Positions 1-61,081 of a stretch of 64,000 nucleotides of DNA are shown in pieces. Each line of letters begins with the position of its first letter. Positions within the stretch are counted from its first letter, which is position 1. The notes below the pieces were generated by a model that was not told where the DNA came from, did no database searches, and was given only the letters and a program-made list of their open reading frames with translations. The DNA lies in the NCBI GenBank assembly GCA_041659465.1, contig JBAZYD010000008.1, positions 7,484 to 71,483 of the forward strand. Reading direction: 5' to 3'. A program made the translations under genes and the position numbers. This DNA is from Candidatus Micrarchaeia archaeon (GTDB taxonomy: Archaea; Micrarchaeota; Micrarchaeia; Anstonellales; Anstonellaceae).

Positions 1-417
1 GAACAGGAACGCGGATTTCCAGAGCGCGCCCTGGCAAAGCGCGAGCACGCGGTTCTGCCTTTTTGCGAGGTAGAGCTCCTTCACTGAATAGACAAGAAGT
101 GCATTTCCCACCCAGATGAACGGGTTGAGGTAGATGAGGGCGAACGATGCGGCGCCGAATATGTAGCCTGCGAGGTATGCCCCGATGCTCGGGAGCACGA
201 TGATTGGCAGCAGGCTCTTGCCGCGGAGGTTGAGCGCGGACAGGACAAGCGCACAGTTCACCACCGTGCCCACCAGGATTTGGGGGTGCCCAAGGACAAA
301 GGGGAGCGAAATCGCGATCACCGCGTAGAGGAGCATCTCCACGTTCTCGCGGATTGCTGTCAGCTGGTATTCCTGCAGGTAAAACGACGCCGGCACGTAT
401 GAGTATTTGTTTTCCAT
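1..417 (-). CDS. integral membrane protein, 3' end cut by window edge
   Basis: Hand translation from the ATG (complement of 415-417) gives MENKYSYVPASFYLQEYQLTAIRENVEMLLYAVIAISLPFVLGHPQILVGTVVNCALVLSALNL... The frame stays open to base 1 and contains several hydrophobic helices. It is absent from the ORF track because it runs off the edge. Confidence 0.6.
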   Translation of the reverse strand, partial: MENKYSYVPASFYLQEYQLTAIRENVEMLLYAVIAISLPFVLGHPQILVGTVVNCALVLSALNLRGKSLLPIIVLPSIGAYLAGYIFGAASFALIYLNPFIWVGNALLVYSVKELYLAKRQNRVLALCQGALWKSAFLF

Positions 418-478: not shown

Positions 479-946
479 ATGGTTAAGGAAAACGGCAAGA
501 AGGACAGCCGCCCCCTGATAAACATACTCCACGAGGTGCAGGAAAAGCACGGCTACATCTCCGAGCACATGCTCAAGCAGATTGCGGTGGAGCAGGACAT
601 TCCGATTTCCCGGCTTTACGGGGTGGTGAAGTTCTATACCATGTTCCACACCGAGCCTCAGGGGAAGTATGTCATCGAGATTTGCGGCTCGCCCTCGTGC
701 GTTCTCAACAACGGCGTGAGGCTTGAAAAGTTCCTGGAGACCGAGCTTTCCACCGCAATAGGGGAAACGAGCAAGGACGGCATGTTTTCCCTTTACAAGA
801 CATCGTGCATAGGGTGCTGCGACGAGGCGCCCGCCATGCTGATAAACGGCGAGCCGCACACCAAGATGACAGTGGAGAGGCTCAAGCTCATCCTGAAAAA
901 GCTTCGCGAAGCCGAGGCAGCGCAGGCGGGAGAAAAAAAGAAGTGA
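479..946 (+). CDS. hydC: NuoE/HydC-like thioredoxin-fold [2Fe-2S] subunit
   Basis: 155 aa with 24-kDa-subunit-like Cys pattern (ICGSPSC ... CIGCCDEAP). It sits directly upstream of the NuoF-like and HydA genes. Confidence 0.85.
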   Translation: MVKENGKKDSRPLINILHEVQEKHGYISEHMLKQIAVEQDIPISRLYGVVKFYTMFHTEPQGKYVIEICGSPSCVLNNGVRLEKFLETELSTAIGETSKDGMFSLYKTSCIGCCDEAPAMLINGEPHTKMTVERLKLILKKLREAEAAQAGEKKK

Positions 947-950
947 CTTG

Positions 951-2072
951 ATGCAGATACTACGCCAGACAAAGCTCGAGGCGCTTGAGAAGGCGCGTTC
1001 ATTGGGACCGGAGGCCACCATTGCCCTGATTGGGAAGCGCGGGCTCGAGGGCAGGGGAGGCGCGGCCTATCCCACCGCGAAGAAGTGGAAAACGTGCAGG
1101 GATGCGCCATCCGACGAGCGGTTCGTGGTTTGCAATGCCGACGAGGGCGAGCCAGGCACCTTCAAGGACAAGCTCATCATTCGGCACAATGCGGAGACCA
1201 TGATAGAGGGCATTCTGATTGCGGCGTATGCCGTTGGCGCCAAGAGATGCTTCATCTACCTGCGGGGGGAATACGATTATCTCCGCCCGCGCCTCCAGGA
1301 GCAGATTGACGACGTGCTTGCGCGCGCGAAGACGGAAGGCGTTACCATCGAGATTGTAAGGGGTGCAGGAGCATACATCTGCGGCGAGGCGACCGCGCTC
1401 CTCCAGTCCATAATGGGCTTTAGGGGAAATGCGATGTGCAAGCCGCCCAACCCCACCACGCACGGGCTTTGGGGAAAGCCCACTGTCATCAACAATGTGG
1501 AAACGCTGACGTGCGCGGCGCAGGCGGTCCTTTTCGACGACTGGGATTCCACGCTCCGCCTGTTCTCGATTTCAGGCAATGTCAAGAACCCCGGCGTGTA
1601 CGAGTTCCCGCTTGGCGTGAAGATGTCCACAATCATAGATGTCGCGCGCCCTGAGAAAAAGCTGAAGGCGATGTCGTTCGGCTGCTTCGGCGGGATAATG
1701 CCCGTGGACGAGAACATGTCCGTGACGCCGGAGACCATCAACATGGAAAAGTGCCAGCACGGCGCGTACAGCATCATTTTCATCGACGAGACGAACAATG
1801 TTGTGGATGTCGCGTATTCCATTGCGAAATTCTACACCTACGAGTCCTGCGGCAAGTGCACGCCCTGCAGGGAGGGCACCATGCGCATGCTCAACCTGCT
1901 CAAGAAGGTGCGCTCGGGCAAGGCCGTGAAAAAGGATTTGGAGCTGATGCGCGAGCTTGCTGTGCACATACAGGACACCGCTTTATGCGGCCTTGGGCAG
2001 ACGTGCGGGAACCACATACTGACAAGCCTTGAGCATTTCCCGAAGGATTACGATGCATTCATGAAAAGATAA
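951..2072 (+). CDS. hydB: NuoF/HydB-like flavoprotein subunit (minimal core)
   Basis: Motifs GRGGAAYPTAKKW, CNADEGEPGTFKD and ESCGKCTPCREGT (N3-type 4Fe-4S). The track start at 948 is TTG; ATG lies at 951. No extra ferredoxin domains are present. Confidence 0.9.
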   Translation: MQILRQTKLEALEKARSLGPEATIALIGKRGLEGRGGAAYPTAKKWKTCRDAPSDERFVVCNADEGEPGTFKDKLIIRHNAETMIEGILIAAYAVGAKRCFIYLRGEYDYLRPRLQEQIDDVLARAKTEGVTIEIVRGAGAYICGEATALLQSIMGFRGNAMCKPPNPTTHGLWGKPTVINNVETLTCAAQAVLFDDWDSTLRLFSISGNVKNPGVYEFPLGVKMSTIIDVARPEKKLKAMSFGCFGGIMPVDENMSVTPETINMEKCQHGAYSIIFIDETNNVVDVAYSIAKFYTYESCGKCTPCREGTMRMLNLLKKVRSGKAVKKDLELMRELAVHIQDTALCGLGQTCGNHILTSLEHFPKDYDAFMKR

Positions 2073-2087
2073 ATACCGGGTCATCAG

Positions 2088-3752
2088 ATGAAAATAAAGC
2101 TGAACAACAACGAAATCGAGGCCGCGGAGGGCAAGTCGCTCCTTGACATCTGCCGCGAGAACGGCATCAATGTGCCAACATTGTGCTACCACGCCAGCAT
2201 GGCGCCGGAGGCGCGCTGCAGGGTGTGCCTGGTGGAAATGGACGGCAAGCTCGTCACATCATGCTCCACAAGGCCGCGAGAGGGCGCATCAATCGTCACC
2301 AATTCGGAGCGCGTGATGAAGGCAAGAAGGCTGAACATGGAGCTCATGGTGCCCGACCCGTCGTGCAAGCGCGAGGACGACTACGAGGTCTGCCAGACCT
2401 ACAAGGAGGTCGGGATGGACAATGCGCGCTTCTCGCAGATAAAGGACTACATACCCGACCTGGGCGCCGCGGTGATACGCGACAACAACAAGTGCATAAA
2501 CTGCGGCAGGTGCGTCAAAGTGTGCGCGGAGATACAGGGGGTCTTCGCGATAGACTTTGCGAGCCGCGCGCACAACGAGCATGTCACCCCGTACTGGGAG
2601 AACCATTTGGCGGACGTTGCCTGCATACGGTGCGGCCAGTGCATACTCAACTGCCCTGTCGGCGCGATTTCTGAAAGGTCCCATATTGAAGAAGTTGTGG
2701 CTGCGCTTGACGACAAGGACAGGCACGTGGTGGTGCAGGTTGCGCCTTCCATCCGGGCGGCCTTAGGCGAGCTTTTCGGCATGCCCGCGGGCGCGCTTGT
2801 GACAGGCAAGACTGTTGCCGCGCTCCGCCGCTGCGGCTTTGCAAAGGTGTTCGACGTGGACTTGGGCGCGGACATCACCATCATGGAGGAGGCGTCCGAG
2901 CTTCTGAGGCGGGTGGAAAACAACGGCAAGCTGCCCATGATTACCACCTGCTGCCCGGGCTGGATACTGATGATGGAATTCTTCTACCATGACCTGATAG
3001 GGAACATGTCCACCTGCCGCTCACCGCACGAGATGCTCGGCATGCTCATCAAGACGTATTATGCGAAAAAGGCGGGCATCAGCCCGAAGAAAATAACCGT
3101 TGTTTCCATCATGCCCTGCACTGCCAAGAAGTTCGAGTCCACGCGGCCAGAGCTTGAAAGCGGGGTGGACTATGTGCTCACCACGCGTGAGCTAGGAAGG
3201 CTCATCAAGATGAAAAAAATCGACTTCGCATCGCTTCCCGACGAGGAATTCGACCCTGCGCTCGGGATTTCGACAGGCGCTGGCGTGATATTCGGGGCGA
3301 CAGGGGGCGTGATGGAGGCTGCGCTGCGCACCGCGCACTTCCTGGCAACAGGGGCGGAGCTTGAGAAGGTTGAGATTGCTGAGATTCGCGGCATGAAAGG
3401 CATGAAGGAAGGCAAGATAGTGCTCAATGGCAAGGAGATACTGTTTGCCTGCGCGCACGGAGGGGCGAACGCGCGCAAGCTCATGGAGATTAAGGACAAG
3501 TACCACTTCATCGAGATAATGGCATGCCCGGGCGGCTGCATCGGGGGCGGCGGGCAGCCCATCTACCGCGACCCCGAGGTGCTGAGGAAGAGGACTGAAG
3601 CCATCTATTCCGCGGACCGCGCAAGCAAATTGCGCCGCTCGCACGAAAACCCGGTGGTGCAGCAGATTTACCGCGAAATGCTCGGCGCGCCGCTTTCCGA
3701 AGAGGCAGAGAGGCTGCTGCACACGCACTATGTAAAGAGGGACAGGTTTTGA
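2088..3752 (+). CDS. hydA: [FeFe]-hydrogenase catalytic subunit
   Basis: H-cluster motifs TTCCPGW, MPCTAKKFE and EIMACPGGCIGGGGQP are all present. The N-terminus has a 2Fe-2S fold (CYHASMAPEARCRVC) and two 4Fe-4S motifs (CINCGRCVKVC, CIRCGQCILNCP). Confidence 0.92.
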   Translation: MKIKLNNNEIEAAEGKSLLDICRENGINVPTLCYHASMAPEARCRVCLVEMDGKLVTSCSTRPREGASIVTNSERVMKARRLNMELMVPDPSCKREDDYEVCQTYKEVGMDNARFSQIKDYIPDLGAAVIRDNNKCINCGRCVKVCAEIQGVFAIDFASRAHNEHVTPYWENHLADVACIRCGQCILNCPVGAISERSHIEEVVAALDDKDRHVVVQVAPSIRAALGELFGMPAGALVTGKTVAALRRCGFAKVFDVDLGADITIMEEASELLRRVENNGKLPMITTCCPGWILMMEFFYHDLIGNMSTCRSPHEMLGMLIKTYYAKKAGISPKKITVVSIMPCTAKKFESTRPELESGVDYVLTTRELGRLIKMKKIDFASLPDEEFDPALGISTGAGVIFGATGGVMEAALRTAHFLATGAELEKVEIAEIRGMKGMKEGKIVLNGKEILFACAHGGANARKLMEIKDKYHFIEIMACPGGCIGGGGQPIYRDPEVLRKRTEAIYSADRASKLRRSHENPVVQQIYREMLGAPLSEEAERLLHTHYVKRDRF

Positions 3753-4086
3753 TTTTCCATTTTTTACAACCCTTTTTAAACCTTTTTAACAGTACCCACA
3801 TGTGCACTCCAAAACATACTCCATAAGGGCAACGGCGGGAAAGCCTGCTTTCCTGGCAAGAAGGCTGCGTGCCTTCAATGGGAAGACGGCACTCCCGCTC
3901 TTGAGAAGCCACCCTGCGAAACTACAGTCGGAAAGGCGCCTGGACGGAAATCATGCCATATGGAGGCAGAAGCGCGGCAAATGCGAATATGGCTATGAAA
4001 CATCGGCTGCAGGCAGCGGGGGAATCGCAGTGAAGGAAAAAGCCTGTGCTGCGTGCCTTTTTATTCCAACGGTGCAATTCCATTCC

Positions 4087-4341
4087 ATGGACAGTGTGGA
4101 ACTCCTTGGGCTTGCCGCTTCGCTGCTTGTGATAGTCTCGTGGATACCCCAGCTGAAAAAGAGCCTCAAGACGCGCCAAATGAAGGATTTTTCCTGGGGC
4201 ATGCTCTCGCTCCTTTTTACCTCGCAGGTCATGTTCCTTGCATACGGGGTCCTCATTGAAAGCCTGCCGGTCGTCCTGACGAATGCATTCACCGCGCTCT
4301 TCATAGGCGCCCTTGCATTCCTCAAAATCAAGCACGGCTAG
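4087..4341 (+). CDS. PQ-loop / SemiSWEET-like small membrane protein
   Basis: 84 aa from the internal ATG at 4087 with three hydrophobic helices and a WIPQLKKSLKTRQMKDFS PQ motif. The 95 codons upstream in the track ORF start at GTG and are Arg-rich and non-protein-like. Confidence 0.65.
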   Translation: MDSVELLGLAASLLVIVSWIPQLKKSLKTRQMKDFSWGMLSLLFTSQVMFLAYGVLIESLPVVLTNAFTALFIGALAFLKIKHG

Positions 4342-4369: not shown

Positions 4370-4669
4370 CTACGGGGGCATCCTGTAGACCTGCAGGTGC
4401 GGCACGCCGCCTATGTTTTTAGCGTACGAGACCGCGAGCCCTGCCTTTTTCGCGGCCTGCAAAGCGCGCCTGCCCACGATGTTGGCGTTCTGGGCGGCTT
4501 TCAGCGCCTCCACCGCCTCTTTCTCATCGACTTTTTTCCCCAAGTAGAATGGCGCGTAGGCGGACAGGTCAAGCCTTGCCTTGCCGCTTTCAAGCACCTT
4601 GCCGATGAGCTCGATGTCGCAGAGCGCGACAATCTCGCCGTCAGGGGAGGCGTGCGTTTTCAGGTACAT
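4370..4669 (-). CDS. DUF424-like conserved archaeal protein
   Basis: 99 aa, MYLKTHASPDGEIVALCDIELIGKVL... This matches my recollection of the DUF424 family pattern. A TATA (cctaataaaa, 4690-4699) lies about 26 nt upstream. Confidence 0.6.
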   Translation of the reverse strand: MYLKTHASPDGEIVALCDIELIGKVLESGKARLDLSAYAPFYLGKKVDEKEAVEALKAAQNANIVGRRALQAAKKAGLAVSYAKNIGGVPHLQVYRMPP

Positions 4670-7077: not shown

Positions 7078-7845
7078 TTAGACTTTCTTCTTCCCTGCCT
7101 CGCGGATTGCGCGCACGAACTCGGCGACCTTTTTCCTCGTGTCCCCGCCTTTTTCAAGCGCGGTGCCGACCTGCACGGCGCCTGCGCCGGCAGCTATCAC
7201 TGCAGCTGCCTCCTGCGGCGTGCGTATGCCGCCTGCGGCGATGTAAGGCACGGATATCACGCGCGAAACCGCAGCCACCATCTCAAGGGGCATATGCCCG
7301 TCCTTTGGGTTGGAGCCGCAGTCCGTGAGCACAAAGCGGCTGCCGGACATCTCTGCCGAAAGGGCGAATGCAGCCGCGATTTGCGGCTTGTCGCGCGGCA
7401 CAAGGTTCACGTCGCCTACAAAGCCCACCGTGCCGCCTGGCGAAATCACTATGTAGCCGACCGGAAGCGCCTCAAGGCCAATCTTGCGCACGGACGGGGC
7501 TGCGAGCATCTGCGCCTGGGAAATCCAGTACGGGTTGCGGCTGTTGAGAAGCGACATGAAATATACAGCGTCCGCGTATTTTGTCACGGTTGAGATGTTG
7601 CCCGGGAACAGCACCACTGGCACGCTAGCTTGTTCCTTTATGCTTTTGGTGACAGTGTCCAAAAGCTCGCCCTGCGCGCCCATGCTGCCGCCGATGAGTA
7701 TGATGTCCGCGCCTCCCTCGCCTGCCGCCGTGCCTGCGGCTATCGCCTCGGATGGCGACTTGTAGTCCACAGGGTCGATGAGCGCAAAGAGCAGCCCGCC
7801 CTTTTTCGCAATGTTGTCCTTGATGTATGTTTCGACTTTGCCCAT
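7078..7845 (-). CDS. geranylgeranylglyceryl phosphate synthase (PcrB family)
   Basis: LFALIDP, ILIGGS, FPGN, LLNSRNPYWI and GGIRTPQEA are present. Start chosen at MGKVETYIKDN (7845). An alternative ATG at 7881 overlaps the upstream stop as TGATG. Confidence 0.85.
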   Translation of the reverse strand: MGKVETYIKDNIAKKGGLLFALIDPVDYKSPSEAIAAGTAAGEGGADIILIGGSMGAQGELLDTVTKSIKEQASVPVVLFPGNISTVTKYADAVYFMSLLNSRNPYWISQAQMLAAPSVRKIGLEALPVGYIVISPGGTVGFVGDVNLVPRDKPQIAAAFALSAEMSGSRFVLTDCGSNPKDGHMPLEMVAAVSRVISVPYIAAGGIRTPQEAAAVIAAGAGAVQVGTALEKGGDTRKKVAEFVRAIREAGKKKV

Positions 7846-11921: not shown

Positions 11922-13472
11922 TTACCTCCGTTTTGGCGCTTTGGGCGCCTTGCCGGCGCCGGCCTCGCCCTGGAGAATGGCAATCGCCTCGCCTTCCTGC
12001 CTGCCTGACGGCGACAGGGCGGAAAGTAGCTCGCGCTCCGATGCGCCAAGATCGCGGAGCAGCGAGATTGCGGACGCCTGCCCGTACCCGAATTTCGAAA
12101 GAAGCGCCGCAAACTCCAGCGCCTCAAGCGAGAAGCTGCGCCGCTCGAATTCCGACAGCACGGCGCGCGCCTGCGCGTCGGTCAGCCCGAACGATATGAG
12201 CCTTGATGAAAGCTCCCCTTTCTCGAATTCCAGGTCCATCCCACCACCCCGTATATGCTGCGCTACCAGGAGCTCTTCCCCGTCCACCTTGCGCAGCATG
12301 AAGGTGCGCGGGCAGGCGGCAGGGGACGAGAACTCCAGGTGCACGATTGCCTGCCCCACCGAGAGCGAATGCGACTCCTCCTCGTAAAAGTCAGAATATG
12401 CCAGGGAGGAGCGGACATAGCTGCGCTCCTGGGCATGCGTGAGGCGGAACAGGAGCATGGTGCCCGCGTTTGAGAAGATGCTCCTGTGCACGTCGGTCGG
12501 GCTCTGGGACGCCACAATGAGGCCGAAGCCGTATTTCCTCCCCTCGCGCACGATGGAGACCACGTCCGAGCGCTCGTCCGCCGCTATCTTCCACGCCTCG
12601 TCCACCACCACGAACAGGCGCGGGCGGGAGAGGGAGGAATACTCCGAGGCGCGCATGCTTTCCTTCACGAATTGGAGGATGGAAAGGCCTGCAAGAGAGC
12701 GCAGCGCCTCGGTCGGCAGCGAGTGCAGGTCCACGCAGACCAGCCCGGAGAGGAGGGAGGAAAGCGGCAGGGTGGATTTCGTGAACGAGCCTCCTGATGA
12801 GCAAAGCAGGTTCCTTATGCGCCGCGCGGCTTCCGCCGCATCGGCGCTGCGCCTTGATTGGCGTTCCAGTATGCGCACCACGCTCTCCAGCGTGGGCGGC
12901 CTTTTCCCGCTGTGGAGCCTGCCGCGCGCCTTCCCGGCCCCGGCATATGCCTTCTCCATCGCATCCTCGGTCATCCGGCACTGAGCCGGTGACGATGAGA
13001 TGTCGGTCAGCATGCGCAGCGAATCCATCACCTGCTGCGTGCGCGTGCGGGAGGAGCTTCCCGCCAGCTCGAGCAGGTTGATGCCCTCCTCGCCGAAGGA
13101 AACCACGCGCCCGCCTGCGCTTCGCACCCAGTCCGCGTACTCGCCTGCCCAGTCAAGTATGAGCGCGGACGCGCCAAGCGTGAGCCCTGCGCGCGTGATG
13201 AAGGTCTTTACGAAGTAGGACTTGCCCGAGCCCGTGGTGCCGACCACGCAGAGGTGCGGATTGAGGAGCTTTTTGCTGTTCCAGAAAAACGGCACGCCCA
13301 GGTATTTCGTCCGCCCGATGTAGACGGATTCCGAGGGAGGGGACAGCAGCAAATCTGGCGAAGGCTCAGGCGGCCTGAAAAGGAAGTCGCGTGATGCCAT
13401 CTGCCCCGAAAGCACCTTCTGCGAAGAGAGCATGCCGCACATAAATGGGAAATGGCACCCATAGCGCCCCAC
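11922..13472 (-). CDS. HerA/FtsK-superfamily ATPase (DUF87-like)
   Basis: Walker A VVGTTGSGKS, Walker B LFVVVDEAWK and the signature REGRKYGFGLIVASQSP. The start is uncertain: GTG at 13472 or ATG at 13400. Confidence 0.8.
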   Translation of the reverse strand: MGRYGCHFPFMCGMLSSQKVLSGQMASRDFLFRPPEPSPDLLLSPPSESVYIGRTKYLGVPFFWNSKKLLNPHLCVVGTTGSGKSYFVKTFITRAGLTLGASALILDWAGEYADWVRSAGGRVVSFGEEGINLLELAGSSSRTRTQQVMDSLRMLTDISSSPAQCRMTEDAMEKAYAGAGKARGRLHSGKRPPTLESVVRILERQSRRSADAAEAARRIRNLLCSSGGSFTKSTLPLSSLLSGLVCVDLHSLPTEALRSLAGLSILQFVKESMRASEYSSLSRPRLFVVVDEAWKIAADERSDVVSIVREGRKYGFGLIVASQSPTDVHRSIFSNAGTMLLFRLTHAQERSYVRSSLAYSDFYEEESHSLSVGQAIVHLEFSSPAACPRTFMLRKVDGEELLVAQHIRGGGMDLEFEKGELSSRLISFGLTDAQARAVLSEFERRSFSLEALEFAALLSKFGYGQASAISLLRDLGASERELLSALSPSGRQEGEAIAILQGEAGAGKAPKAPKRR

Positions 13473-37752: not shown

Positions 37753-37849
37753 GGGCCCATAGCTCAGCTTGGTAGAGCAGTGGACTCTTATGCTCGCATG
37801 CGCGCGCAGAGCCATCCACGTGTCGTGGGTTCGAATCCCACTGGGCCCG
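37753..37849 (+). tRNA. tRNA-Lys(CUU) with 23-nt canonical (37/38) intron
   Basis: Acceptor GGGCCCA/TGGGCCC+G, D arm GCTC-AGCTTGGTA-GAGC, anticodon stem GTGGA/TCCAC and loop CTCTTA|intron 37791-37813|A. T arm GTGGG-TTCGAAT-CCCAC. The mature tRNA is 74 nt. Confidence 0.85.
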
Positions 37850-59774: not shown

Positions 59775-59875
59775 GTTCCCATTCCCCCTCACTCACGTTT
59801 TAAACCTTGTGGGGCAATACACGAACAGCAGTCTTCCGGGGATATTTTTTTCAATGCCCCCAAGAGCGTGAAAAA

Positions 59876-61081
59876 ATGGCAATCAAACTCGATTTTTCCC
59901 CAAAGAAAAAATCCGCGTGCGTATCCGAGCCCGAGTCAGTCTCATCGCTTGTGAACGGGCACTACGGCTACATGAAAAAAGGCGTCATCCACCTTTTCCC
60001 CGAGGAGGCGCTGTATCTTATGGACATACGGAACGCGCGCGCGTTCGACTCGTCGCTGAACGAATACCGCTTCAACCACGTGGCCGCCGCCTTTGAGCGC
60101 AAAAAGCAGATGGCGCGCTACTTCACCTACAAGGACTGGCGCGACAGGGGGCTTATTGCGCGGCAGGTGAGCGAAATCTGCGAGCGCTACGGCAGGAACA
60201 ACAGCATCAAATACCCGTCGGGGAATCTCAGGCTTGACAAATACTCCCTAGTCGGCCGCTTCTACCCTGACGACCTGTGGTCCATAATCGACGACGAGGA
60301 AGTCGGCAAGCGCCTGTATGAGGAGCACTGGTTCGGCCAGTTCGGCTCCTACAAGGCCGAGCAGCGCGGCAGGCTTTCCAAGCTTGATGCATACGAGACG
60401 CTTTTCCTCATGCGCCATTCCGGCATGCGCCTGGAAAATGCGGATGAGAGCGGCGTGATTCGCGCCGCCAGGCGCCAGCACAAGGACTTTTTGCACCTGT
60501 ACGAAGTTTACGAGGACTGGCGCCTGCACGGTTTCGTTCTCAAGACAGGCTTCAAGTTCGGCACGCACTTCAGGCTTTACTTCCCGGGCGCCTCGCCGGC
60601 GCGCGAGGGCAAGGAATGGATTCACAGCAAGCACGTGGTGCACTGCTTCCCCCGCGCAAGCAAGCTGCTCATATCCGAGTGGGCGCGCGCAATCCGCGTT
60701 GCGCACTCTGTGAAAAAGACATTCCTTCTTGCGATACCTGGCGAGGCGAAAAAGAAAGCGAAGGCAACTGCAAAGAAGGCAAAGGCGGAATCGGCAGATC
60801 TCCACACCGCTCTTGATTTCCTCCTCTACCACCGCCAGCACGGCGGCATCGAGAACCCGAAAACCGGCAAGCCCAAATACCTGATGTTCTCGCTTTCCGA
60901 GGAGGAGCACATAGGCGGCGAGGAGCTTGCGGATGCAATCGCGCAGTGCAAGCGGATTGGGCTTGAGCTGCTGCTTGCTATCTGCGACCGCGAAACATCT
61001 GTCACATACTACCTGGTGAAAAGGCTCGAGGTGCCTGGGAGCACGCGCGAGTACTACGAAATAGAGTGGGTGCAGCCTTAA
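59876..61081 (+). CDS. endA: tRNA splicing endonuclease, long three-unit form
   Basis: 401 aa. The catalytic unit is YEDWRLHGFVLKTGFKFGTHFRLY...HSKHVVH...VKKTFLLAI. An N-terminal extra unit (LFPEEALYLMD...YFTYKDWRDRGLIA) and a C-terminal extra unit (GLELLLAICDRETSVTYYLV) flank it. Confidence 0.85.
   Translation: MAIKLDFSPKKKSACVSEPESVSSLVNGHYGYMKKGVIHLFPEEALYLMDIRNARAFDSSLNEYRFNHVAAAFERKKQMARYFTYKDWRDRGLIARQVSEICERYGRNNSIKYPSGNLRLDKYSLVGRFYPDDLWSIIDDEEVGKRLYEEHWFGQFGSYKAEQRGRLSKLDAYETLFLMRHSGMRLENADESGVIRAARRQHKDFLHLYEVYEDWRLHGFVLKTGFKFGTHFRLYFPGASPAREGKEWIHSKHVVHCFPRASKLLISEWARAIRVAHSVKKTFLLAIPGEAKKKAKATAKKAKAESADLHTALDFLLYHRQHGGIENPKTGKPKYLMFSLSEEEHIGGEELADAIAQCKRIGLELLLAICDRETSVTYYLVKRLEVPGSTREYYEIEWVQP

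Follow-up and report, generated by a model that had tools for sequence, protein, structure and literature searches.

The 64,000-nucleotide stretch of DNA analysed here (the window), positions 7,484 to 71,483 of contig JBAZYD010000008.1 in the Candidatus Micrarchaeia archaeon assembly GCA_041659465.1, contains within its first 3.8 kb the genes hydC, hydB and hydA of a trimeric [FeFe] hydrogenase, three intact co-directional open reading frames separated by gaps of 4 and 15 nucleotides. Their products are predicted from the sequence to form a cytoplasmic heterotrimer that acts as a reversible, ferredoxin-independent NAD(H):H2 oxidoreductase and is not electron-bifurcating, a reading to which we assign a probability of about 0.7. 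Plain electron exchange between NADH and H2 is the most likely chemistry because HydB lacks every feature needed for bifurcation. An earlier note on this DNA had described the operon as the subunit set of the bacterial electron-bifurcating HydABC enzymes. The three subunits are indeed present, but HydB fails all the sequence criteria for bifurcation, and the equation with the bifurcating enzymes does not hold. A HydB stripped in this way is what the literature gives as the mark of the non-bifurcating, NADH-dependent type.

The Pfam domains of HydB are Complex1_51K, SLBB and NADH_4Fe-4S, and nothing else; the protein comprises a flavin mononucleotide (FMN)/NADH site, an SLBB domain and a single N3-type [4Fe-4S] cluster ligated by C300, C303, C306 and C346. 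Its best match in the PDB is the NuoF subunit of Aquifex, aligned end to end with 283 bits, whereas the bifurcating HydBs reach 242–252 bits and overhang the window protein at both ends, the N-terminus by about 130–170 residues and the C-terminus by about 70. The N-terminal [2Fe-2S] thioredoxin-like domain is absent, the core of the window HydB starting at about residue 5 where bifurcating HydBs have 130–190 extra residues. The C-terminal ferredoxin-type domain with two [4Fe-4S] clusters (B3/B4; IPR017896) is absent as well, with no Fer4 match in Pfam, and the alignment showed that the DPANN HydBs end where the C-terminal extension of the bifurcating HydBs (about 70 residues with 10 Cys) begins. 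Likewise there is no Zn (or [2Fe-2S]) hinge, since the H..RCPAKIC.. segment of A. mobile falls beyond the C-terminus of the window protein. Pfam and alignment agree here with the earlier description of HydB as a stripped NuoF core of about 373 residues without the extra ferredoxin domains of the Thermotoga type.

The residues around the flavin point in the same direction. Four diagnostic sites were described by Losey 2020, at positions 232, 234, about 312 and 427–431 of TmHydB, which are A/E, M, F and GGPSG in bifurcating enzymes and T/S, K/S/A, Y and no GGPSG in non-bifurcating ones. The position of about 312 is that of the supplementary table and maps to GAGA(F/Y); the FMN-site residue is placed at 367 in the main text, which does not. 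The window HydB has T71, K73, Y143 (in GAGAY) and FGC-FGG, the non-bifurcating state at all four sites. Together with six DPANN relatives it shows the pattern GTFK/GAGAY/FGC-FGG, against GAFM/GAGAF/GGPSGG in the bifurcating sequences, including that of A. mobile (in which the residue called F182 by Schut 2022 counts as F282 in chain 7t2r_B). Schut 2022 defined the Bfu family by the ferredoxin-type 4Fe-4S domain in BfuB, and regarded the hydrogenase of Syntrophomonas wolfei, Nqo, the R. eutropha hydrogenase and the R. capsulatus Fdh, all devoid of clusters B2–B5, as non-bifurcating. The window HydB corresponds to the short non-bifurcating form, defined by about 400 residues, FMN and one [4Fe-4S] cluster, T/K/Y without GGPSG and a NuoE-like HydC partner; the reference HydB of Syntrophothermus lipocalidus has 407 residues, with T, K, Y and GGTSG.

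A survey was made of the HydB proteins encoded beside HydA at 80 loci listed from a scan of GTDB species-representative genomes; the matches listed comprise three close archaeal loci plus bacteria, with no Micrarchaeota species representative among them. The four diagnostic sites co-vary perfectly with the architecture of HydB at these loci. About 50 are of the bifurcating type, with a HydB of 596–665 residues (or longer, or fused), the 10-Cys C-terminal extension and AM/F/GGPSG, and about 23 are of the non-bifurcating type, in which HydB has no extension and shows TK/Y and no GGPSG. Every archaeal locus listed belongs to the latter type (HydB of 370–392 residues), as does a Syntrophus locus matching the experimentally non-bifurcating S. 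aciditrophicus type. Among the 1.84 billion cluster representatives searched, close HydB clusters numbered only five (45–65% identity; 373–378 residues, plus one HydC-HydB fusion), beyond which the similarity drops to about 40% and extends to the whole NuoF superfamily.

The natural fusion (P0123, 528 residues) joins a NuoE-like N-terminus to a minimal NuoF core and has a counterpart in the Syntrophus aciditrophicus HydAB type, whose beta subunit is likewise fused. A separate observation concerns residue 147 of HydB, where the window protein reads CGEATAL in place of the CGEETAL of NuoF, the second Glu being E185 in Aquifex. This position is Ala in the window and in the related locus L001, Gln in L004 and P0125, and Glu in the other DPANN relatives. 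The corresponding Glu of E. coli NuoF is E183, which discriminates against NADPH and whose replacement lets complex I use NADPH; a literature check found nothing on this point. The cofactor specificity of HydB may be relaxed toward NADPH.

HydA contains the Pfam domains Fer2_4, two Fer4, Fe_hyd_lg_C (E 4.4e-91) and Fe_hyd_SSU, and scores 489 bits against the NCBIfam model TIGR02512 for group A [FeFe] hydrogenases (cut-off 406). All three H-cluster motifs (TTCCPGW, MPCTAKKFE and EIMACPGGCIGGGGQP), the N-terminal [2Fe-2S] motif and the two [4Fe-4S] motifs are seen in the translation, as the earlier note had stated. The protein also falls into group A by the motif test, which comprises L1 TSCCPxW, L2 MPCxxKxxE, L3 ExMxCxxGCxxGxGQP, the four Cys ligands and the proton-relay Cys. 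The H-cluster ligands are C289, C344, C480 and C484 and the proton-relay residue is C288; C33, C44, C47 and C59 ligate the [2Fe-2S] cluster, and C136/139/142/146 and C179/182/185/189 the two [4Fe-4S] clusters. The H-cluster Cys, the Cys and Glu/Arg residues of the proton relay and the ligands of all relay clusters do not vary in an alignment of 30 DPANN homologs of at least 64% identity, which disposes of the concern, raised beforehand, that the H-cluster ligands might not really be conserved. Among solved structures the best match is HydA1 of T. kivui (550 bits), A. woodii HydA1 reaching 512 bits; CpI was aligned as well. The highest-scoring NCBIfam model, NF040763 ('NADH-dependent [FeFe] hydrogenase, group A6'), gave 733.6 bits, below its cut-off of 765, and its name was not used because it apparently goes back to a clostridial numbering of older date and makes no distinction between bifurcating and non-bifurcating enzymes. 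HydC is a 2Fe-2S_thioredx protein (PF01257, Pfam, E 3.6e-43) with the [2Fe-2S] ligands C69, C74, C110 and C114 in the pattern C-x4-C-x35-C-x3-C.

A second element is degenerate in HydA itself. The M3-type architecture, that of Clostridium pasteurianum CpI, has, between the [2Fe-2S] and the ferredoxin-like domains, a His-ligated [4Fe-4S] cluster with the motif HxxxCxxCxxxxxC. The PDB alignment showed that this site is not intact in the window HydA and that the M3-type arrangement is not retained: ELMVPD--PSCKREDDYEVCQ stands against SHNADCFECDKNLHC of T. kivui, the His being absent and the second Cys replaced by Glu. The site is degenerate in all 30 DPANN homologs, which keep 0–2 of the Cys and in many cases none. 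Among the 80 loci listed, none of the 51 HydAs linked to a bifurcating HydB has lost the motif. Of the 23 that go with a HydB of the non-bifurcating type, 15, all of them bacterial, retain it; the losses are those of the archaeal loci and of one Clostridia metagenome-assembled genome. In T. maritima the His-ligated cluster bridges and couples two HydABC protomers. Its loss removes the other conceivable entry point for ferredoxin.

We infer the electron path by homology with complex I and the HydABC structures, and with it the substrate, the direction and the physiology. NADH would deliver a hydride to the FMN of HydB, from which single electrons would move to the [4Fe-4S] cluster of HydB (the N3 equivalent), then to the N-terminal [2Fe-2S] cluster of HydA and through its two ferredoxin-like [4Fe-4S] clusters to the H-cluster, where protons would be reduced to H2. 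The [2Fe-2S] cluster of HydC would lie beside the flavin, like N1a of complex I, off the main path. Because both the B3/B4 domain of HydB and the His-ligated cluster of HydA are absent, no cluster would be available for the entry of ferredoxin. The reaction is expected to run freely in both directions, with its poise near the NADH/NAD+ potential.

Under standard conditions the H2/H+ couple is the stronger reductant of the two, NADH the weaker, and H2 production would therefore proceed only at very low H2 pressure. Characterised enzymes of the non-bifurcating type generate about 2–40 Pa of H2 from NADH. Such a limit would mean that the organism needs an H2-consuming partner or host, or else that it makes NADH from ambient H2. 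Three complexes with a stripped flavoprotein have been assayed (S. wolfei Hyd1ABC, S. aciditrophicus HydAB and Caecomyces churrovis Hyd-NuoEF), and all of them are ferredoxin-independent.

The direction of the reaction leaves room for a different role of the same non-bifurcating enzyme, namely uptake, in which NAD(P)+ is reduced with environmental or host H2 and which is not fermentative disposal of NADH. This role is possible but the less probable one. It agrees with the behaviour of S. wolfei Hyd1ABC, which is about 14 times faster from H2 to NAD+ (94.5 vs 6.6 U/mg), the exergonic direction. A relaxed specificity toward NADPH, as the Ala at residue 147 of HydB may allow, would also suit an anabolic role. 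However, the window gives no sign of direction, and DPANN genomes are generally read as fermentative.

The operon can also be read as an electron-bifurcating or confurcating HydABC of group A3, in which NADH and reduced ferredoxin would be oxidised together to give H2. HydDB assigns group A3 from gene neighbourhood alone, and the context that it requires, a group A HydA beside a NuoF-like HydB and a NuoE-like HydC, is the one found here, with the same three subunits in adjacent genes. Huang 2021, Greening 2024 and a 2024 Microbiome paper label the DPANN enzyme electron-bifurcating group A3, and HydA is closest in the PDB to the HydA of bifurcating enzymes. We nevertheless consider this reading unlikely. 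HydB is devoid of the N-terminal [2Fe-2S] domain, the C-terminal pair of [4Fe-4S] clusters and the Zn hinge segment, and has the non-bifurcating residue at every diagnostic site, while all characterised bifurcating HydBs possess the elements absent here; HydA has no cluster of the kind that couples the protomers in T. maritima. Nor is a compensating gene conserved nearby: in the seven archaeal loci compared hydC always adjoins hydB and the hydCBA arrangement is always kept, and beside the operon there is no fourth conserved redox gene and none able to supply the missing HydB domain.

Several points weigh on the other side of the scale, against a ferredoxin-independent enzyme. Structural modelling in the DPANN papers, which call the enzyme bifurcating A3, is said to support trimeric bifurcating complexes, and the archaeal activity reported by Greening 2024 was that of single subunits with a synthetic cofactor only, and not of any HydABC complex (PMC11216029). 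The scores of HydA, 550 bits with T. kivui and 512 with A. woodii, place it nearest to enzymes that do bifurcate. The diagnostic rules rest on few characterised enzymes, all of them bacterial or eukaryotic, and ferredoxin could in principle bind at some other site, or to a protein whose gene is not part of the locus.

The occurrence of such an operon in archaea is not in itself new. Trimeric clusters of HydA with one gene resembling nuoF and one resembling nuoE were reported in Woesearchaeota by Huang et al. 2021 (PMC8421398), who found only 4Fe-4S, FMN and SLBB domains in the nuoF-like gene and a Woesearchaeota HydA monophyletic with that of Micrarchaeota and other DPANN archaea. According to Greening et al. 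2024 (PMC11216029), nine archaeal phyla have [FeFe] hydrogenases, the most widespread archaeal [FeFe] type being HydA-HydB-HydC, present in at least six DPANN phyla. The earlier statement that [FeFe] hydrogenases are only sparsely reported in archaea is therefore outdated. Since the archaeal HydABC and its lack of maturases were already published in 2021 and 2024, the window adds a further member of a known clade and its novelty as an archaeal HydABC is low. A search of a paper library found no paper combining the terms 'non-bifurcating' and 'DPANN'.

The operon is native to a Micrarchaeota (DPANN) archaeon, a small archaeon of the symbiotic type, as had been proposed earlier for an archaeal genome. 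The best 120 HydA matches in a collection of 5.8 billion proteins are 64–92% identical, and the named ones are all Micrarchaeota, Woesearchaeota, Pacearchaeota, Nanoarchaeota or simply 'archaeon', the nearest of them (83–88%) being Micrarchaeota/Micrarchaeia. The exact window HydA is not on record in public assemblies, its nearest relative being 92% identical. Among the matches listed, the close DPANN loci, which include one with the title Methanosarcinales archaeon, have HydA identities of at least 62%, and bacteria follow with at most 50%. An independent 63-kb contig (L001) carries hydC, hydB and hydA at 72, 81 and 87% identity and is collinear beyond hydA, where the DUF424 gene and two more genes follow as they do in the window (range 72–87%); it also has the EndA, FBPase and DeoC of the window at 82–88%. 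The operon was found within contigs of 126 kb and 742 kb as well. In the window its neighbours are archaeal (gatD, gatE, EndA, TYW1, the large subunit of replication factor C, RecJ and topoisomerase I), which bears out the gatDE, EndA and Taw1 genes named before, the GC content is even along the sequence, and the tetranucleotide composition of the first 4 kb correlates with that of the remaining window at r = 0.91, within the 0.83–0.97 given by the other 4-kb blocks.

These data also bear on an artefact of assembly or binning, a bacterial fragment joined to an archaeal contig, which the earlier note had named as grounds for rejecting its reading. Such an origin might be suspected since [FeFe] hydrogenases are mostly bacterial and the operon is found right at one end of the window. 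It is effectively refuted, and was set aside because synteny, composition, promoter and the DPANN-only close relatives agree: independent samples (L001 and L002) have the operon next to the same archaeal neighbours, it is embedded in the two long contigs, has an archaeal TATA box at native spacing and shares the uniform GC content and tetranucleotide usage of the window, and the close HydA relatives listed are all DPANN, with a gap to 50% or less for bacteria. Two HydA loci, L007 and L072, are titled 'uncultured Methanosarcinales archaeon'. L007 has a DPANN-type operon with a HydA 62% identical and a short HydB, and L072 has a fragment of a bacterial-type bifurcating HydB; either title could reflect an error of binning, or a DPANN symbiont placed in one bin with its host.

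Profile searches revealed no HydE, HydF or HydG candidate in the 64-kb window, in line with the earlier note. The sole real radical S-adenosylmethionine (SAM) gene is TYW1, the GTPases are Obg-like and YchF-like, and the best score of the HydF model is 30 bits against a cut-off of 326. No maturase was found within 8–10 kb of hydA in the seven archaeal loci; L003/L004 have a radical-SAM gene 7 kb upstream, which is neither HydE nor HydG. A full HydEFG set was present in 5 of 130 such archaeal genomes studied by Greening et al. 2024, who proposed an alternative maturation route (PMC11216029).

The missing maturases, in the window and around the seven loci as in most archaeal genomes (Greening 2024), could be taken to mean that the genes are relics, or that HydA is a non-catalytic, sensory or scaffold protein in a genome without HydEFG. 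This explanation was considered and rejected as very improbable. The H-cluster, proton-relay and relay-cluster residues are invariant in homologs down to 64% identity, which indicates purifying selection on catalysis, and HydA lies on the group A side of TIGR02512 (489 vs 406 bits). Moreover, other archaeal HydAs are active once given the cofactor (Greening 2024), and Woesearchaeota relatives are transcribed in situ (2024 Microbiome paper).

The gene divergent from hydC encodes a membrane protein with six helices. The part of it contained in the window is 68% identical to the protein of L001:7768-8340, 47% to that of L007 and 40% to that of L004, all of which are encoded beside hydCBA. A six-helix protein of about 185 residues thus adjoins hydCBA in four of the seven archaeal loci (the window, L001, L004:11686-12225 and L007:5114-5659). 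On a Micrarchaeota contig the six-helix gene (L085:6001-6561) follows, after 5 nucleotides, a minimal HydA of 369 residues, and two more distant family members are unlinked to HydA. The protein matches no Pfam family; its family comprises 111 proteins, every named one of them from DPANN archaea. The AlphaFold2 model has six helices, a predicted local distance difference test score of 94 and a weak, sub-significant likeness in fold to the S-components (RibU, ThiT), which capture the substrate in energy-coupling factor vitamin transporters. It is probably the 'hyd6TM' of Greening 2024, where it is named only in figure legends. It is tempting to speculate, at long odds, that this protein might take part in an H-cluster route independent of HydEFG, for example by salvaging the [2Fe] subcluster, a precursor or flavin from the host or the environment.

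The features of the operon region are collected in Table 1. Open reading frames, Pfam domains and ligands confirmed the HydC-HydB-HydA operon of the earlier note. The hydB frame was listed as 948-2072, starting from TTG, with ATG as codon 2; the ATG is the likely start, giving 373 residues, because the relatives begin with MQI. The TATA box that had been assigned to hydC stands at the promoter spacing usual for the window, starting 29 nucleotides before the ATG and separated from it by 22 nucleotides. Window-wide, the distance of TATA-like hexamers from start codons has its peak at -30 to -26 (20 of 59 occurrences; 17 of 57 open reading frames), and no such hexamer was found in the upstream regions of hydB and hydA in the upstream scan of the window. 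The position of the TATA box implies that the hydC transcript would be leaderless or nearly so, and the sharp peak suggests the same for many transcripts of this genome. The T-rich tracts after hydA are likely to serve as an oligo-T terminator, as is generally understood of archaeal termination signals.

Table 1. Features in and beside the hydCBA operon (positions in the window)
Feature	Position	Strand	Description	Basis
hydC	479-946	+	NuoE-like thioredoxin-fold [2Fe-2S] subunit, 155 aa	PF01257
hydB	951-2072	+	minimal NuoF-like flavoprotein, 373 aa	Pfam, PDB match, alignment
hydA	2088-3752	+	group A [FeFe]-hydrogenase catalytic subunit, 554 aa	Pfam, NCBIfam, PDB alignments
six-helix membrane protein gene (N-terminal 139 aa)	1-417	-	divergent from hydC, cut by left window edge	
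TATA box TATAAAA	450-456	+		sequence
T-rich tracts (TTTTCCATTTTTT, CTTTTT, CTTTTT)	3753-3800	+	immediately past hydA stop codon	

Just 3' of hydA, at 4087-4341 (+), lies a gene for an 84-residue three-helix transporter of the PQ-loop/SemiSWEET-like kind (Pfam PQ-loop, E 2e-7; MtN3_slv slightly below its cut-off). It is followed at 4370-4669 (-) by a DUF424 gene (99 residues) convergent with hydA, an arrangement found also in L001 and L002 (79% identity) and not in remoter loci. Farther along the window, a 97-nucleotide tRNA at 37753-37849 (+) was found by Rfam and not by ARAGORN; its length could hold an intron, which is the most likely cause of the miss, and the splicing endonuclease EndA is also encoded in the window (59807-61081). 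A gene at 11922-13472 (-) encodes a HerA/VirB4/CedB-like DNA-translocating ATPase of 516 residues with weak matches to CedB and CedD (archaeal DNA import), and may belong to a DNA uptake or conjugation system.

The comparison with known systems places the window operon among the DPANN group A3 HydABC enzymes (Huang 2021; Greening 2024), with which it shares gene order, subunit sizes, the FMN/SLBB/4Fe-4S composition of the nuoF-like subunit and the absence of HydEFG. The members named, from Micrarchaeota, Woesearchaeota, Pacearchaeota and Nanoarchaeota, have a HydA 64–92% identical to that of the window; there is no structural difference, and only the interpretation, bifurcating there, is different. 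Hyd1ABC of S. wolfei (Losey 2017, 2020) is likewise a heterotrimer of HydA, a short HydB without extra Fe-S domains and a NuoE-like HydC, with the same T/K/Y/no-GGPSG signature and the same expected chemistry, from NADH to H2 without ferredoxin. It differs in being bacterial, the window HydA being only about 45–50% identical to its bacterial relatives, and in that HydEFG adjoin its operon. Its HydB has 407 residues against 373 in the window, because the DPANN HydB also lacks two surface loops of NuoF.

The bifurcating HydABC enzymes of T. maritima, A. woodii and T. kivui (PDB 7P5H, 7Q4V, 8A6T) consist of three homologous subunits with the same HydA core. Compared with these, the window HydB is without the N-terminal [2Fe-2S] domain, the C-terminal clusters B3/B4 and the Zn hinge, its flavin-site residues are of the complex I type, and the window HydA is without the His-ligated cluster and the C-terminal [2Fe-2S] cluster of T. 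maritima. In Aquifex aeolicus NuoEF, the NuoF subunit shares with the window HydB the motifs GTFKD and GAGAYICGE and the four Cys ligands of N3, and HydC is NuoE-like; the window HydB is about 45–60 residues shorter than this NuoF, and NuoG and the membrane arm are replaced, as its partner, by a subunit bearing the H-cluster. The hydrogenosomal Hyd-NuoE-NuoF of Caecomyces churrovis (2026) differs in being eukaryotic, with a NuoF of mitochondrial complex I origin and no operon.

With subunits of 155, 373 and 554 residues and five accessory clusters, this is the smallest natural HydABC, and it offers an attractive minimal scaffold for NADH-driven H2 production. If the import of cofactor parts suggested above were true, then, with the stripped HydB and the lost His-ligated cluster also counted, no known hydrogenase system would be more reduced than the DPANN enzyme, which would be non-bifurcating, would mature by import and would be tied thermodynamically to a partner that consumes H2. 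Metabolic reconstructions of DPANN archaea (Woesearchaeota, Micrarchaeota and others) assume confurcation of NADH and reduced ferredoxin, by which H2 could be formed when its pressure is high. With a plain NADH:H2 oxidoreductase instead, NADH could be disposed of as H2 only with a partner that holds H2 at a few tens of pascals, or the enzyme would work in uptake. The reduced ferredoxin would then be left without the sink assumed in the DPANN models, and the dependence of these small archaea on a partner would have a concrete thermodynamic basis.

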